64,000 nucleotides of DNA, from assembly GCF_055900595.2 (NCBI RefSeq), contig NZ_CM148325.1. One strand, given 5' to 3'. The position numbers and the translations under genes were made by a program. Positions 5,845-38,021 of this stretch are shown one piece after another. The notes under the pieces were generated by a model. It had not been told where the DNA came from. It saw nothing but the letters and a program-made list of their open reading frames with translations, and ran no database searches. Each line of letters opens with the position of its first letter. Within the stretch, counting starts at the first letter, position 1.

Positions 5845-5965
5845 ATGCCGGATGCGGCGTGAACGCCTTATCCGGCCTACAAAAGCATGCAGATTCAATA
5901 TATTGCAGAATTAACGTAGGCCTGATAAGACGCGCCAGCGTCGCATCAGGCGCTGAATGCCGGAT
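5845..5965. repeat. REP (repetitive extragenic palindromic) elements
   Basis: GCCGGATGCGGCGTGAACGCCTTATCCGGCCTAC and TAGGCCTGATAAGACGCGCCAGCGTCGCATCAGGC motifs. Confidence 0.85.
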
Positions 5966-5985
5966 TGTTACCCAGCATTTGTCAT

Positions 5986-6282
5986 TTAGCGGTGATGTTT
6001 GCCTGGACCATGACCGCCGTGATGATCATGAGGAGCTTTCTTATGGTGGCGCGGCGGTGGCGGCGGTCCGTGTGGGTGCCAGCGATTGCCTCGCCATTCA
6101 TAATGTTGTTTCCACCAGCCGTGGTCGCGCCAGTGACCGCCATCCCAGTAATAGCCACGATTATCACGATCGCCTATCTGTAATTTTACTGACGGGACTA
6201 ACGTAATTTCCGCAGCCTGTGCTGCCATGGGAGCGACCAGAACCAGGGAAAGTGCGAGTACGATAGATTGCATCTTTTTCAC
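5986..6282 (-). CDS. yaaX: DUF2502 protein YaaX (signal peptide, His/Pro-rich C-terminus)
   Basis: 98-aa [26 protein letters not shown]…; synteny between yaaA and thrC. Confidence 0.7.
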
Positions 6283-6495
6283 AGGTTACTCCTTTTATCA
6301 TTGCCCGTTATGGGTCGATATCCGGAGATTACGCGATGAGAACGGCGGTTGTTATTCTCCGCAATCCTAATCTCTAAGTTACCGCATTTATTGAGAATTT
6401 CTCCTTTTTTCCTGTCGTTTTTCTCCATATTTTCTTCATAAAAAAGCCGGGCTGTATAAAAGCAAACCCGGCCTGATTGAGATAATGAATAGATG

Positions 6496-7782
6496 TTACT
6501 GATGATTCATCATCAATTTACGCAACGCAGCAAAATCGGCGGGCAGATTATGCGAAAGCAAGGGTAAATCAGCACGTTCTGCCAGCTCTTTTGGCAGATC
6601 CAATGTTTCACCGAGAATCGCTTCCACGCTCTCTTTAAATTTCGCCGGATGCGCGGTGCCGAGGAACAAGCCATATTCGCCTGGATGCAACTGGTCACGC
6701 AGCGCACGATAAGCTACGGCAGCGTGCGGCTCCGAGGTATAGCCCAGTTCTTTTAACTCACGCATTGTCTGTTGCGTGGTTTCATCATCTACGGCTGCAT
6801 AACCCAGCTCTTTCAGTTGCCAGATTTTGCGGCGGAATAACTCCTCCACACGCGGCCAGTTGTTCGGCTGACTCACGTCCATCGCATTGGATAATGTCGC
6901 CTGAGTCGCTTTAGGGGACCACTGCCCGTCGTGCAGGAAACGCGGCACGGTATCGTTCACGTTAGTGGCAGCGATAAAACGCTTCACCGGCAGGCCAAGA
7001 GATTTCGCCAGCAGGCCCGCAGTCAAATCGCCGAAGTTACCGCTCGGCACCGAGACAACCAGCTGGTTGCGCGCTTCCTGCGGCAGCTGCGCAACAGCTT
7101 CAAAGTAGTAGCAAATCTGCGCCAGCAAACGGCTGATGTTAATGGAGTTAGCAGAGTTTAGCCCCAGCGCCACTTTCAGTTCTTCATCATCAAACGCCTG
7201 CTTCACCAGCGCCTGACAGGCATCGAAATCGCCGTCGATGGCAACAGTTTCAATATTGCCGCCCAATGTACAGAACAGTTTTTCTTGCAGTGGACTGATT
7301 TTGCCTCGTGGATAGAGGATAACCACTTTCACATTCGGCAAACCGTAGAAAGCATGAGCCACTGCCGCTCCGGTATCACCGGAGGTCGCAGTCAGAATGG
7401 TCACTGGCTTATCGCCCGCAATATGGGTCAGCATTTGTGCCATAAAGCGACCGCCGAAATCTTTAAATGCCAGCGTTGGCCCGTGAAACAACTCCAGACA
7501 ACCGACATCGCTTTCAACATTGGCGACCGGAGCCGGGAAGGCAAACGCCGCGCATACGCGCTCTTCCAGGATTTCCTGCGGGATTTCATCACCAATAAAC
7601 GCCGAGAGGATCTTCGCACTGCGGGTGACAAAATCCAGCTTCAGCATCTCATCAATTTCAGTCAGGCTGAATTCCGGCAGGTCGTGCGGGAAAAACAGCC
7701 CCTGATTTTTGCCCAACCCCTGAGTTACGGCTTGCGCAAAGCTGACCTGTTCGTTGTGATCTTTCAGATTGTAGAGTTTCAT
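6496..7782 (-). CDS. thrC: threonine synthase
   Basis: 428-aa ORF MKLYNLKDHNEQVSFAQAVTQGLGKNQGLFFP…; last gene of thrABC. Confidence 0.95.
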   Translation of the reverse strand: MKLYNLKDHNEQVSFAQAVTQGLGKNQGLFFPHDLPEFSLTEIDEMLKLDFVTRSAKILSAFIGDEIPQEILEERVCAAFAFPAPVANVESDVGCLELFHGPTLAFKDFGGRFMAQMLTHIAGDKPVTILTATSGDTGAAVAHAFYGLPNVKVVILYPRGKISPLQEKLFCTLGGNIETVAIDGDFDACQALVKQAFDDEELKVALGLNSANSINISRLLAQICYYFEAVAQLPQEARNQLVVSVPSGNFGDLTAGLLAKSLGLPVKRFIAATNVNDTVPRFLHDGQWSPKATQATLSNAMDVSQPNNWPRVEELFRRKIWQLKELGYAAVDDETTQQTMRELKELGYTSEPHAAVAYRALRDQLHPGEYGLFLGTAHPAKFKESVEAILGETLDLPKELAERADLPLLSHNLPADFAALRKLMMNHQ

Positions 7783-34201: not shown

Positions 34202-34254
34202 GGTAACCTCCCGTGGAATAAGTTTGAAGGCGTTGTTGCCAGATGGCGGATGTT

Positions 34255-34350
34255 GTTATTGCCTGATGCGATGCTGACGCATCTTACAAGGCCTACACGG
34301 CACTCGACCCGTAGGCCGGATAAGGCGTTCGCGCCGCATCCGGCATCCAC
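34255..34350. repeat. REP elements between deoC and deoA
   Basis: GCCTGATGCGATGCTGACGCATC… and …GTAGGCCGGATAAGGCGTTCGCGCCGCATCCGGCA palindromic units. Confidence 0.8.
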
Positions 34351-34368: not shown

Positions 34369-35148
34369 TTAGTAGCTGCTGGCGCTCTTACCGTCGCCGT
34401 GGCCCAGCGCTTTCAGCAGGCTTGCCAGCAGGCTGGAAGCACCAAAGCGGTAGTGACGCGCATCTGCCCAGTCAGCACCGAACAGTTCATCTGCAATCGC
34501 GAGATATTTCTGCGCATCTTCCGCAGTACGCACGCCGCCCGCAGGTTTGAAACCAACGGTTTTCTCTACGCCCATATCACGGATCACTTCCATCATGATG
34601 CGCGCGCTTTCCGGCGTCGCGTTCACTGCAACTTTACCGGTAGAGGTTTTGATGAAATCAGCACCCGCTTTAATGGAGATTTCAGACGCTTTGCGGATCA
34701 GCGCTTCGTCTTTCAGTTCGCCGGTTTCGATGATCACTTTCAGCAGTACATTCGCTGCCGCGCAAGCCTCTTTACAGGCTTTCACCAGGTCAAAACCAAC
34801 CTGCTCGTTACCCGCCATCAGCGCACGGTACGGGAACACCACATCAACTTCATCGGCACCGTAGGCGATTGCCGCGCGGGTTTCGGCCAGCGCGATTTCA
34901 ATATCGTCGTTACCGTGTGGGAAGTTGGTTACCGTAGCGATACGGATTTCCGGGGTGCCCTGCTCTTTCAGCGTTTTGCGAGCAATCGGGATAAAGCGAG
35001 GATAGATACAGATAGCGGCGGTATTGCCGACCGGAGTTTTGGCCTGATGACACAGAGCGATCACTTTCTCATCGGTGTCGTCGTCATTCAGGGTGGTCAG
35101 GTCCATCAATTTCAGTGCACGCAGGCTGCTTGCTTTCAGATCAGTCAT
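34369..35148 (-). CDS. deoC: deoxyribose-phosphate aldolase DeoC
   Basis: ORF 34369..35172; likely start at [26 protein letters not shown] (259 aa). Confidence 0.93.
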
Positions 35149-35192
35149 TTCATTCTCCTGGCTTGTCGCCAATAAAATTCACCTTGCGAGTT

Positions 35193-35208
35193 TGTTAGTA
35201 TTCTAACA
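35193..35208. promoter_or_regulatory. DeoR operator O2 at deoP2
   Basis: 16-bp palindrome TGTTAGTATTCTAACA about 45 bp upstream of deoC, matching the DeoR consensus TGTTAGAA/TTCTAACA. Confidence 0.8.
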
Positions 35209-35406
35209 TCGACTCCGCAACACACTTCGATATACATCACAATTAAGGAAATCTACTTACAAAATTGCATTACTGTAATGCGATCTGGTTCAAATAATTC
35301 ACTTTCAAATGAATGCGTCAGTGGTGGCAAACGCATCAGGATCAAAGTGAACATCACGAAACTTCTTACAATGGCGCATCACCTTCGGCATAAAAAGGAA
35401 CAGAAG

Positions 35407-36957
35407 ATGCCCACTTCTCATGAAAATGCACTGCAACAACGTTGCCAGCAAATTGTCACCAGCCCGGTACTTAGCCCGGAGCAGAAACGCCATTTTCTGG
35501 CGCTGGAAGCAGAAAACAATCTGCCTTACCCGGCGTTGCCTGCCGAAGCCCGCCGCGCGCTGGATGAAGGTGTAATCTGCGATATGTTTGAAGGTCATGC
35601 GCCGTATAAACCGCGCTATGTCTTACCCGATTACGCCCGTTTTTTGGCCAACGGTTCCGAATGGCTGGAGCTGGAAGGCGCAAAAGATCTTGATGACGCA
35701 CTCTCTCTGCTGACCATTCTTTACCACCACGTTCCTTCGGTCACATCGATGCCGGTCTACCTGGGGCAACTGGATGCGTTGTTGCAACCGTATGTTAGAA
35801 TTCTAACACAAGACGAGATCGATATTCGAATAAAACGTTTCTGGCGTTATCTCGACAGAACCCTGCCAGACGCCTTTATGCACGCCAATATTGGCCCATC
35901 TGATTCACCCATTACCCGTGCGATTTTACGCGCAGACGCAGAGCTGAAGCAGGTTTCACCGAACCTGACTTTTATCTACGATCCTGAAATCACCCCTGAT
36001 GACCTGCTGCTGGAAGTGGCGAAAAACATCTGTGAATGTAGCAAACCGCACATCGCCAACGGTCCCGTGCATGATAAAATTTTCACAAAAGGGGGCTACG
36101 GGATTGTGAGCTGTTACAACTCACTGCCGTTAGCGGGTGGTGGCAGCACGCTGGTACGCCTCAACCTGAAAGCCATTGCCGAGCGCAGTGAATCGCTGGA
36201 TGACTTCTTTACGCGCACTCTACCGCACTACTGCCAACAGCAGATCGCCATCATCGATGCGCGGTGTGAATTCCTCTATCAACAATCACACTTCTTTGAG
36301 AATAGCTTCCTGGTGAAAGAAGGGCTGATTAACCCTGAACGTTTTGTGCCAATGTTTGGCATGTACGGACTGGCAGAAGCGGTTAACTTGCTGTGTGAAA
36401 AAGAAGGAATTGCCGCGCGTTACGGTAAAGAAGCCGCCGCAAATGAAGTGGGTTATCGCATTAGCGCGCAACTGGCGGAGTTTGTCGCCAATACCCCCGT
36501 GAAATATGGCTGGCAAAAACGCGCCATGTTACACGCACAGTCGGGGATAAGTTCCGATATCGGCACCACGCCGGGCGCGCGTTTGCCGTATGGCGATGAG
36601 CCAGATCCGATCACCCATCTGCAAACTGTCGCCCCGCATCATGCTTATTATTATTCCGGCATCAGCGACATTTTGACGCTCGACGAAACCATCAAACGTA
36701 ATCCGCAGGCGCTGGTACAGCTTTGCCTCGGTGCCTTTAAAGCCGGAATGCGTGAATTTACCGCCAATGTCAGCGGTAACGATCTGGTTCGCGTTACCGG
36801 TTATATGGTGCGTTTGTCGGATCTGGAAAAATATCGTGCCGAAGGCTCACGTACCAACACCACCTGGCTGGGAGAAGAAGCCGCACGCAACACTCGTATT
36901 CTGGAACGCCAGCCGCGCGTTATAAGCCATGAACAGCAGATGCGCTTTAGTCAGTAA
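35407..36957 (+). CDS. yjjI: YjjI-family glycine radical enzyme (function unknown)
   Basis: ORF 35278..36957; start likely at [15 protein letters not shown] (516 aa); C-terminal glycyl-radical-like motif [13 protein letters not shown]. Confidence 0.85.
35793..35808. promoter_or_regulatory. DeoR operator O1 at deoP1, located inside the yjjI coding region
   Basis: Perfect 16-bp palindrome TGTTAGAATTCTAACA, 600 bp from the O2-like site, matching the reported 599-bp O1-O2 spacing. Confidence 0.8.
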
Positions 36958-37792
36958 GATTATCCCCTTCTCCTGCGTTGACGGGCCAGGCAGTCGTCTG
37001 GCTCTGTTTTTACAGGGCTGTAATCTGCGCTGCAAAAACTGTCACAATCCGTGGACAATGGGGCGCTGTAATGATTGCGGGGAGTGCGTGCCACAGTGTC
37101 CGCATCAGGCGTTGCAGATTGTTAACAGCAAAGTAGTGTGGAACGCAGCCGTCTGCGAGCAGTGTGATACCTGCCTGAAGATGTGTCCACAACACGCTAC
37201 GCCGATGGCGCAATCCATGAACGTGGACGAGGTGCTTAGTCACGTCCGCAAAGCGGTGCTGTTTATTGAAGGGATAACGGTAAGCGGCGGTGAAGCCACG
37301 ACCCAGTTGCCGTTTGTGGTGGCGCTGTTTACTGCTATCAAAAATGATCCACAACTGTGTCATCTCACCTGTCTGGTGGACAGTAACGGCATGTTGAGCG
37401 AAACCGGCTGGGAAAAATTACTCCCGGTGTGCGACGGCGCGATGCTCGATCTCAAAGCGTGGGGAAGCGAATGTCATCAACAGCTAACCGGACGCGATAA
37501 TCAGCAGATCAAGCGCAGCATTAGTCTGCTTGCCGAGCGCGGCAAACTGGCAGAACTGCGTTTGCTGGTAATCCCTGGCCAGGTGGATTATTTGCAGCAT
37601 ATCGATGAGCTGGCGGCGTTTATCAAGGGACTTGGCGATGTTCCGGTACGCCTGAACGCGTTTCATGCTCACGGCGTGTATGGCGAGGCGCAAAGCTGGG
37701 CGAGCGCCACGCCGCAAGACGTTGAGCAATTAGCTGATGCGTTACGGGAGCGCGGGGTAAGTCGGTTGATATTTCCAGCGCTGTATTTGTGA
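36929..37792 (+). CDS. yjjW: glycyl-radical enzyme activating protein YjjW (radical SAM / ferredoxin-like Cys clusters)
   Basis: 287-aa ORF with CxxCxNP and additional Cys clusters ([24 protein letters not shown]); overlaps the yjjI 3' end. Confidence 0.85.
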
Positions 37793-38021
37793 CATGCCGG
37801 ATGCGGCCTACGGTTCGGCACAGGCCTGTAGGCCTGATAAGACGCGTCAGCGTCGCATCAGGCATTCTGCGCCAACTGCCGGATGCGGCGTGAACGCCTT
37901 ATCCGGCCTACGGTTCGGCACAGACTTGTAGGCATGATAAGACGCGTCAGCGTCGCATCAGGCATTGTGCGTCGACTGCCGGATGCGGTGTGAACGCCTT
38001 ATCCGGCTTACGAAGGGCAGA
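37793..38021. repeat. BIME/REP cluster (several REP units)
   Basis: Repeated GCCGGATGCGGCGTGAACGCCTTATCCGGCCTACG and TGATAAGACGCGTCAGCGTCGCATCAGGCA units. Confidence 0.9.

Follow-up and report, generated by a model that had tools for sequence, protein, structure and literature searches.

We examined the junction between deoC and yjjI in a 64,000-nucleotide stretch of contig NZ_CM148325.1 (RefSeq assembly GCF_055900595.2), hereafter the window, where three 16-bp sites resemble the operators through which the repressor DeoR controls the deoCABD operon. A 3.6-kb query matched essentially every complete Escherichia coli genome, with 98.7% identity to the best match and 95.7% to K-12, and gene coordinates were transferred from the RefSeq annotation of the 98.7%-identical E. 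coli and of K-12. The deo genes run leftward, and yjjI, which encodes a glycyl radical enzyme, runs rightward into yjjW. The deo control region extends about 940 bp upstream of deoC, but the gap between deoC and yjjI is only 258 bp; the distal promoter deoP1 and the operators O1 and OE therefore lie inside the yjjI coding sequence. A sequence-only reading of the window had placed them there, and both the RefSeq annotation and the span of the Pfam domain agree (PF11230, YjjI-like, residues 22-504, profile positions 1-485 of 485, E=3.9e-220).

Operators and promoters of the deo control region

The three 16-mers were read directly in the window where the sequence-only reading had located them (Table 1), with the spacings it had claimed: 600 bp between O1 and O2 and 279 bp between OE and O1, compared with 599 and 279 bp in K-12 MG1655. 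A pattern search of the 64 kb with the perfect O1 palindrome as query, allowing up to three mismatches, returned only O1 (0 mismatches) and O2 (1 mismatch). At this threshold, 0.19 matches were expected, and two matches were reached in 1 of 100 shuffles. The OE-like site had been described as a 12/16 match, and we counted four mismatches to the palindrome. Six sites in the window reach this level, and because three of them (8715, 46070, and 49196) are unrelated, OE needs other support. It is not significant on sequence alone, and its reality rests on position and conservation.

O1 and the reverse complement of the site at 35193 equal the published DeoR palindromes, which are TGTTAGAA-TTCTAACA for O1 and TGTTAGAA-TACTAACA for O2 (PMC5326754). 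In K-12 MG1655, the same sequences are found at 4617263 (O2), 4616664 (O1), and 4616385 (OE), with O1 and OE inside b4380 yjjI (4615515-4617065). The published deo promoters are 599 bp apart (PMC3334521), and the published O1 and O2 are separated by about 600 bp, with OE about 300 bp further upstream (PMC8053113). The match to the published operators, together with the spacing and the adjacency of deoCABD, bears out the identification first made from the sequence. We therefore consider it very probable that these sites are the classical DeoR operators O2, O1, and OE controlling deoP2 and deoP1, and that the codons within O1 and OE are doubly constrained. The K-12 sites are said to have been described by Dandanell and Hammer in 1985, Valentin-Hansen et al. 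in 1986, Dandanell et al. in 1987, and Amouyal et al. in 1989, in papers that reportedly predate the annotation of yjjI. For OE, the literature reportedly already describes DeoR signal at the site and incomplete repression once it is altered. DeoR sites at deo have been known since the 1980s, and the system is textbook material.

On the deo strand, O1 and O2 both read TGT-TAGAAT, which corresponds to an extended -10 element (TGnTAGAAT). Since each of these promoter-proximal operators appears to contain its own extended -10, DeoR bound there would be expected to occlude RNA polymerase. Multimeric DeoR would link O1, O2, and OE to one another, forming one loop or two, of about 600 and 880 bp. 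Looping would make repression cooperative, and deoxyribose-5-phosphate would relieve it; for DeoR binding, looping, and the inducer we follow the literature. Electron microscopy revealed loops between all DeoR sites, and about 72% looping between O1 and O2 has been predicted in vivo (PMC8053113). Natural looping reaches about 900 bp (PMC4217526).

O2 is conserved in an intergenic alignment of 17 genera. With the deoP2 transcription start site placed at 35193, the two CRP sites are centred at -40.5 and -93.5, which are reportedly the positions published for deoP2 by the Valentin-Hansen laboratory. The motif of a CRP peak between yjjI and deoC, found by chromatin immunoprecipitation sequencing (ChIP-seq) in enterotoxigenic E. 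coli (ETEC), is TGTGATGTATATCGAA, the same site as CRP site 1 (PMC4287617). A further ETEC CRP peak lies inside yjjI, 544 bp from the deoP2 peak, which puts its centre about 23 bp from O1 (PMC4287617); the motif assigned to it, TGTGACCGACGGTACG in K-12, corresponds to positions 35731-35746 of the window. This intragenic signal near O1 could reflect weak direct binding or cross-linking through a DeoR loop.

We looked for a good -35 element for deoP1 and found none, the best candidates being CGAATA, TCGAAT, and TTCGAA. A promoter scan called neither P1 nor P2, neither of which has a good -35, and deoP1 appears to rely on its extended -10. A P1 transcript starting near 35793 would run antisense over the first ~387 nt of yjjI (25% of the gene), then across the predicted yjjI promoter, P2, and deoC. 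The sequence-only reading had taken the whole looping region to be antisense to the 5' third of yjjI, which holds for this deoP1-transcribed part and fails for OE, located at 43% of the gene. Antisense open reading frames of 97, 76, and 54 aa in the deoP1 leader were rejected as genes, as stops interrupt them in other genera, and no Rfam family was found in 35100-36200. The leader also contains a weak terminator-like hairpin, GCAACGTTGTTGC, with a T-rich tail (35433-35445, minus strand), antisense to yjjI codons 9-13; such sites were as common as expected from shuffled sequences.

Table 1. Genes and regulatory features around the deoC-yjjI junction, in window coordinates
Feature	Coordinates	Strand	Remarks
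deoC, first gene of deoCABD	34369-35148	-	RefSeq annotation; followed leftward by deoA, deoB, deoD
DeoR operator O2, TGTTAGTATTCTAACA	35193-35208		TGTTAGAATACTAACA on the deo strand; overlaps the predicted deoP2 -10
Predicted deoP2 -10, TAGAAT with TGn	35200-35205	-	Predicted transcription start ~35193
CRP site 1 of deoP2, TTCGATATACATCACA	35226-35241		Conserved in the 17-genus intergenic alignment
CRP site 2 of deoP2, TGCGATCTGGTTCAAA	35279-35294		Conserved in the 17-genus intergenic alignment
Putative FNR site of the yjjI promoter, CGCATcaggATCAA	35332-35345		Only the ATCAA half is conserved, within GGATCAAA
Putative yjjI -10, TACAAT (TACACT in some genera)	35367-35372	+	Conserved block; predicted transcription start ~35379-35380
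yjjI, YjjI-family glycyl radical enzyme, 516 aa	35407-36957	+	RefSeq annotation; Pfam PF11230
DeoR operator O1, TGTTAGAATTCTAACA	35793-35808		Perfect palindrome; yjjI codons 129-134 (tAT GTT AGA ATT CTA ACA), peptide YVRILT
Predicted deoP1 -10, TAGAAT with TGn	35800-35805	-	Supplied by O1 itself; transcription start ~35793 predicted by analogy with P2
Conserved block upstream of O1, read toward deo (deoP1 -35/upstream region)	35809-35845	-	Contains rare codons CGA141 and ATA142
DeoR operator OE, TGATAAAATTTTCACA	36072-36087		TGTGAAAATTTTATCA on the deo strand; yjjI codons 222-227, peptide (H/N)DKIFT
yjjW, glycyl-radical activase	36929-37792	+	Shares 29 nt with the 3' end of yjjI

Synonymous constraint in yjjI and its distribution

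A scan for YjjI, taking one genome per species, yielded 80 loci. A tblastn search with DeoC found deoC divergently adjacent in 74 of these, a set reaching from Escherichia to Hafnia and Edwardsiella; the exceptions were four Proteus species and two loci, L012 and L062, whose sequence ends short of the deoC side. Synonymous diversity was calculated as pairwise synonymous codon differences in all 511 six-codon windows of yjjI across the 74 deoC-adjacent genes. The lowest value of the gene fell on OE (0.005, rank 1 of 511) and the third lowest on O1 (0.024), compared with a gene mean of 0.446. O1 was perfect in 52 of the 74 loci, with one mismatch in 18 and two in 4, and OE was identical in 62. 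Next in order were the 3' end that overlaps yjjW, codons 295-301, and, in the deo direction, the block immediately upstream of O1. The same ranking was obtained after thinning to 48 sequences with less than 90% nucleotide identity. Codon usage gave a concordant picture: five of the eight AGA, CTA, CGA, and ATA codons of yjjI, the rarest in the gene, fall within 35797-35859, at O1 and deoP1 (hypergeometric P=3.5e-6), and are kept across genera (AGA in 52, CTA in 72, CGA in 61, and ATA in 71 of the 74 genes).

Two of these further low-diversity spots are of separate interest. At the overlap of the yjjI 3' end and the yjjW start (window positions 36925-36957), suppressed synonymous variation fits translational coupling and an overlap of the two reading frames. 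Codons 295-301 (HFFENSF, 36289-36310), the fourth-lowest spot with a diversity of 0.088, contain TTTGAGAAT, a sequence with a loose resemblance to a -10 or to half of a DeoR site.

Variation within O1 was unevenly distributed. The half that forms the predicted -10 on the deo strand (ATT in 74/74, CTA in 72/74) was the invariant one, and differences fell in the other half. Alignments to homologues as distant as 35% identity showed that both operators fall within family-variable stretches of YjjI, flanked by the conserved motifs LDxLLxP(Y/F)V...FW and PHIAN...YG(I/V)V. It thus appears that the operators arose in parts of YjjI that tolerate substitution and were frozen afterwards. The yjjI codons concerned would serve two purposes, encoding YVRILT and (H/N)DKIFT while selection for DeoR and promoter function would hold their DNA sequence constant. 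The overlap of the operators with yjjI coding sequence is not discussed in the literature examined, which took in part of that on yjjI. What is new here is the quantitative evidence of coding and regulatory constraint on the same bases, a modest addition to a known system.

The constraint was absent where deoC is not adjacent. In the four Proteus species, deoC does not stand beside yjjI, which is preceded by serB and smp. The homologous positions there read YVG(E/N/S)LT and QDAVFGK, with 6-12 of the 16 bases unlike those of the operators and synonymous drift between species. At a locus with a 66%-identical YjjI, in a cluster that includes Enterobacillus tribolii, O1 (with one mismatch) and OE occupy identical codon offsets, and O2 lies 612 bp away. 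The arrangement is kept across Enterobacteriaceae, Hafniaceae, and Enterobacillus. Locus L085 (YjjI 69% identical) has deoC divergently adjacent across a 404-bp gap and a yjjI that carries neither O1 nor OE; only a weak O2-like site, TGTGACTATTTCAACA, is present. We regard it as a naturally occurring form whose deo control region is proximal only. O1 and OE thus come and go together.

Several other features of these loci were recorded. In L083 and L085, two distant Enterobacterales-like loci, a NupC-family nucleoside transporter gene (5910-7187 and 5927-7204, respectively) lies between yjjW and the TatD-family gene yjjV, giving the gene order deoBAC, yjjIW, nupC, tatD, which was not seen at more distant yjjIW pairs. 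A general link between YjjI and nucleoside catabolism was rejected, as homologues with 57%, 51%, and 46% identity keep the yjjI-yjjW pair with no deo or nup genes nearby. One 574-aa gene call on a 2.9-kb contig (P0004) joins YjjI-like and DeoC Pfam domains and is probably an assembly or gene-calling artefact at the divergent junction. In the window, repetitive extragenic palindromic (REP) elements of the bacterial interspersed mosaic type (Rfam naRNA4, 88.6 and 69.6 bits) occupy 37831-37908 and 37931-38008 in the yjjW-yjjV gap, with weaker copies at 34237-34350 in the deoC-deoA gap. These elements explain the many places per genome hit in the E. coli search.

Transcription of yjjI and alternative readings

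The experimental facts that we found for yjjI are FNR-dependent anaerobic activation, with an FNR ChIP peak about 93 bp upstream of the ATG (PMC3688515; distance converted here between genome-version coordinates), and the CRP ChIP-seq signals (PMC4287617). The block GGATCAAA at 35339-35346 is invariant in the 17-genus intergenic alignment. It may represent an FNR half-site at about -41, in class II geometry, with TACAAT as the probable yjjI -10, a reading that agrees with the FNR ChIP peak and the anaerobic activation. No full FNR consensus with two or fewer mismatches was found upstream of yjjI, and neither yjjI nor deoC is present in the transcription start site supplements of PMC3415461. 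We also note that the O1 palindrome presents TGTTAGAAT on the yjjI sense strand (35796-35801, plus strand) and that OE presents TGATAAAAT on the same strand, where the promoter scan flagged TCGCCA-16-TAAAAT with TG at 36053-36080. These sense-strand hexamers could be cryptic internal yjjI promoters; the plus-strand version in O1 is not strictly conserved, with TAAAAT or TGGAAT variants.

The predicted yjjI start (~35380) falls between O2 and O1, which raises the possibility that DeoR at O1 and OE, together with the O1-O2 loop, impedes transcription of yjjI and yjjW, and that induced deoP1 fires head-on against it. Interference by roadblock, loop, or convergent transcription would then effectively place yjjIW in the DeoR regulon. 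In support, polymerase transcribing yjjI has to cross O1 near +413 and OE near +692, and about 413 bp separate the predicted, converging deoP1 and yjjI promoters. The estimate of O1-O2 looping in vivo is about 72% (PMC8053113), and Enterobacteriaceae, Hafniaceae, and Enterobacillus all keep the arrangement. However, the study that reported yjjI as FNR-activated and anaerobically induced does not mention DeoR (PMC3688515), and proteome tables of evolved strains with a deoR mutation list DeoC and not YjjI (PMC6828540). No link between yjjI and DeoR was found in the part of the yjjI literature covered or in that on DeoR, deoC, and intragenic sites. The synonymous constraint is restricted to the operators and the P1 promoter, the pattern that selection on deo control alone would produce, and the distant yjjI-yjjW pairs without deo neighbours speak against a general functional tie. 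A loop of 600 bp is also large, and enclosure within it is not by itself expected to repress strongly.

On balance, such coupling is conceivable and would be the less expected outcome, and a measurable effect of DeoR or deoP1 on yjjI seems at least as doubtful. The sequence-only reading had stated that the arrangement implies coupled or interfering expression, which overstates what the sequence allows; coupling does not follow from it. The geometry makes interference plausible because the predicted yjjI promoter sits inside the O1-O2 loop and faces deoP1. A more specific proposal is that the deoP1/O1/OE module was built in two substitution-tolerant loops of YjjI, fixed R/K131, I132, K224, I225, and T227 along with the rare codons, and now gates anaerobic expression of yjjI-yjjW through DeoR occupancy, looping, and deoP1 antisense transcription. 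We consider this proposal unlikely.

The identification of the sites as DeoR operators and the dual constraint on their codons have points against them as well. Part of the conservation of the 35809-35845 block coincides with a conserved KRFW protein motif, and L085 shows that adjacency of deoC need not bring the embedded O1/OE module. OE by itself, at 12/16, would not stand out by sequence, and O1, O2, and OE all fit the CRP core TGTGA-N6-TCACA with two mismatches. DeoR occupancy of the sites is taken from the literature, and the transcription start sites are predicted positions.

One alternative is that conservation at 35791-35845 and 36070-36092 reflects constraint on yjjI mRNA or its translation, through structure or rare-codon pausing, rather than DNA sites. 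The rare AGA, CTA, CGA, and ATA codons do cluster there, and such clusters have sometimes been proposed as translational pause sites. However, the conserved cores coincide exactly with the 16-bp DeoR palindromes, and the invariant half of O1 is the one that carries the predicted deo-strand -10. Proteus, Providencia, and other YjjI genes have neither the sequence nor the rare codons at these positions, and both blocks are found together with an O2 some 600 bp distant. We accordingly give constraint on translation very little weight. It is just as improbable that only O1 and O2 are real, with the OE-like sequence a product of chance or a site of CRP type. The three unrelated four-mismatch matches in the window and the fit to the CRP core would allow this, but OE is the least synonymously variable spot of yjjI, is identical in most loci, and was lost jointly with O1 in Proteus and L085. 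Its position also agrees with that of the published third operator, located upstream of O1 by about 300 bp (PMC8053113), and the ETEC CRP peak within yjjI lies near O1, not OE.

That the 5' part of yjjI is untranslated, with the true start downstream and the operators in non-coding DNA (the outcome that the sequence-only reading had named as fatal to its claim), is scarcely credible: the mechanical open reading frame extends even further upstream, to 35278, PF11230 aligns from residue 22 across its whole profile, the N-terminal 230 residues are conserved as protein in homologues of 35-57% identity and residues 13-230 in those as distant as 35%, the combination of conserved amino acids and a synonymous diversity of about 0.45 over 35407-36090 is a coding signature, and the ATG at 35407 is aligned in 15 of 17 genera, the other two reflecting how the start was extrapolated.

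Significance and comparison with known systems

The deo operon is among the founding examples of long-range repression by DNA looping, and the sites themselves are not new. What this locus shows is a full promoter and two operators persisting over evolution inside the reading frame of a neighbour, where the embedded module overrides codon preference and fixes amino acids in YjjI. Recoding, deleting, or codon-optimising yjjI would thus alter deo regulation, and the phenotype of a yjjI knockout may really be a deo phenotype. Scans for synonymous constraint can place known operators to within one codon. If DeoR or deoP1 did modulate yjjIW, this would open a first regulatory approach to a glycyl-radical enzyme whose function is unknown, and if the module gated yjjI-yjjW, an orphan glycyl-radical enzyme would prove to be a hidden member of the DeoR (deoxynucleoside) regulon.

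The closest comparison is with the deo operators of K-12, which occupy the same locus with identical sequences and the same relation to deoC, deoP1, and deoP2. The window differs in an O1-O2 distance that is 1 bp longer and in coming from an E. coli lineage that shares 95.7% identity with K-12 in this region; the mechanism is no different. For the convergence of deoP1 with the predicted yjjI promoter about 413 bp away, and for tight repressor sites within a transcribed region, the counterparts are convergent promoters such as pR and pL of coliphage 186 and repressor roadblocks. In those systems, however, interference was shown experimentally, whereas at deo and yjjI it is a geometric possibility only.

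Intragenic operators are also found in the lac and gal systems, where they work by repressor-mediated looping. Like O1 and OE, lac O2 in lacZ and gal OI in galE are auxiliary operators within coding sequence, hundreds of base pairs from the main one. In lac and gal, however, the operator within coding sequence is downstream, inside the regulated operon's own first gene, whereas at deo an entire promoter and two operators are found upstream, in a neighbour that is unrelated and divergently transcribed. Transcription of that neighbour, yjjI, must cross the operators and meets deoP1 head-on.

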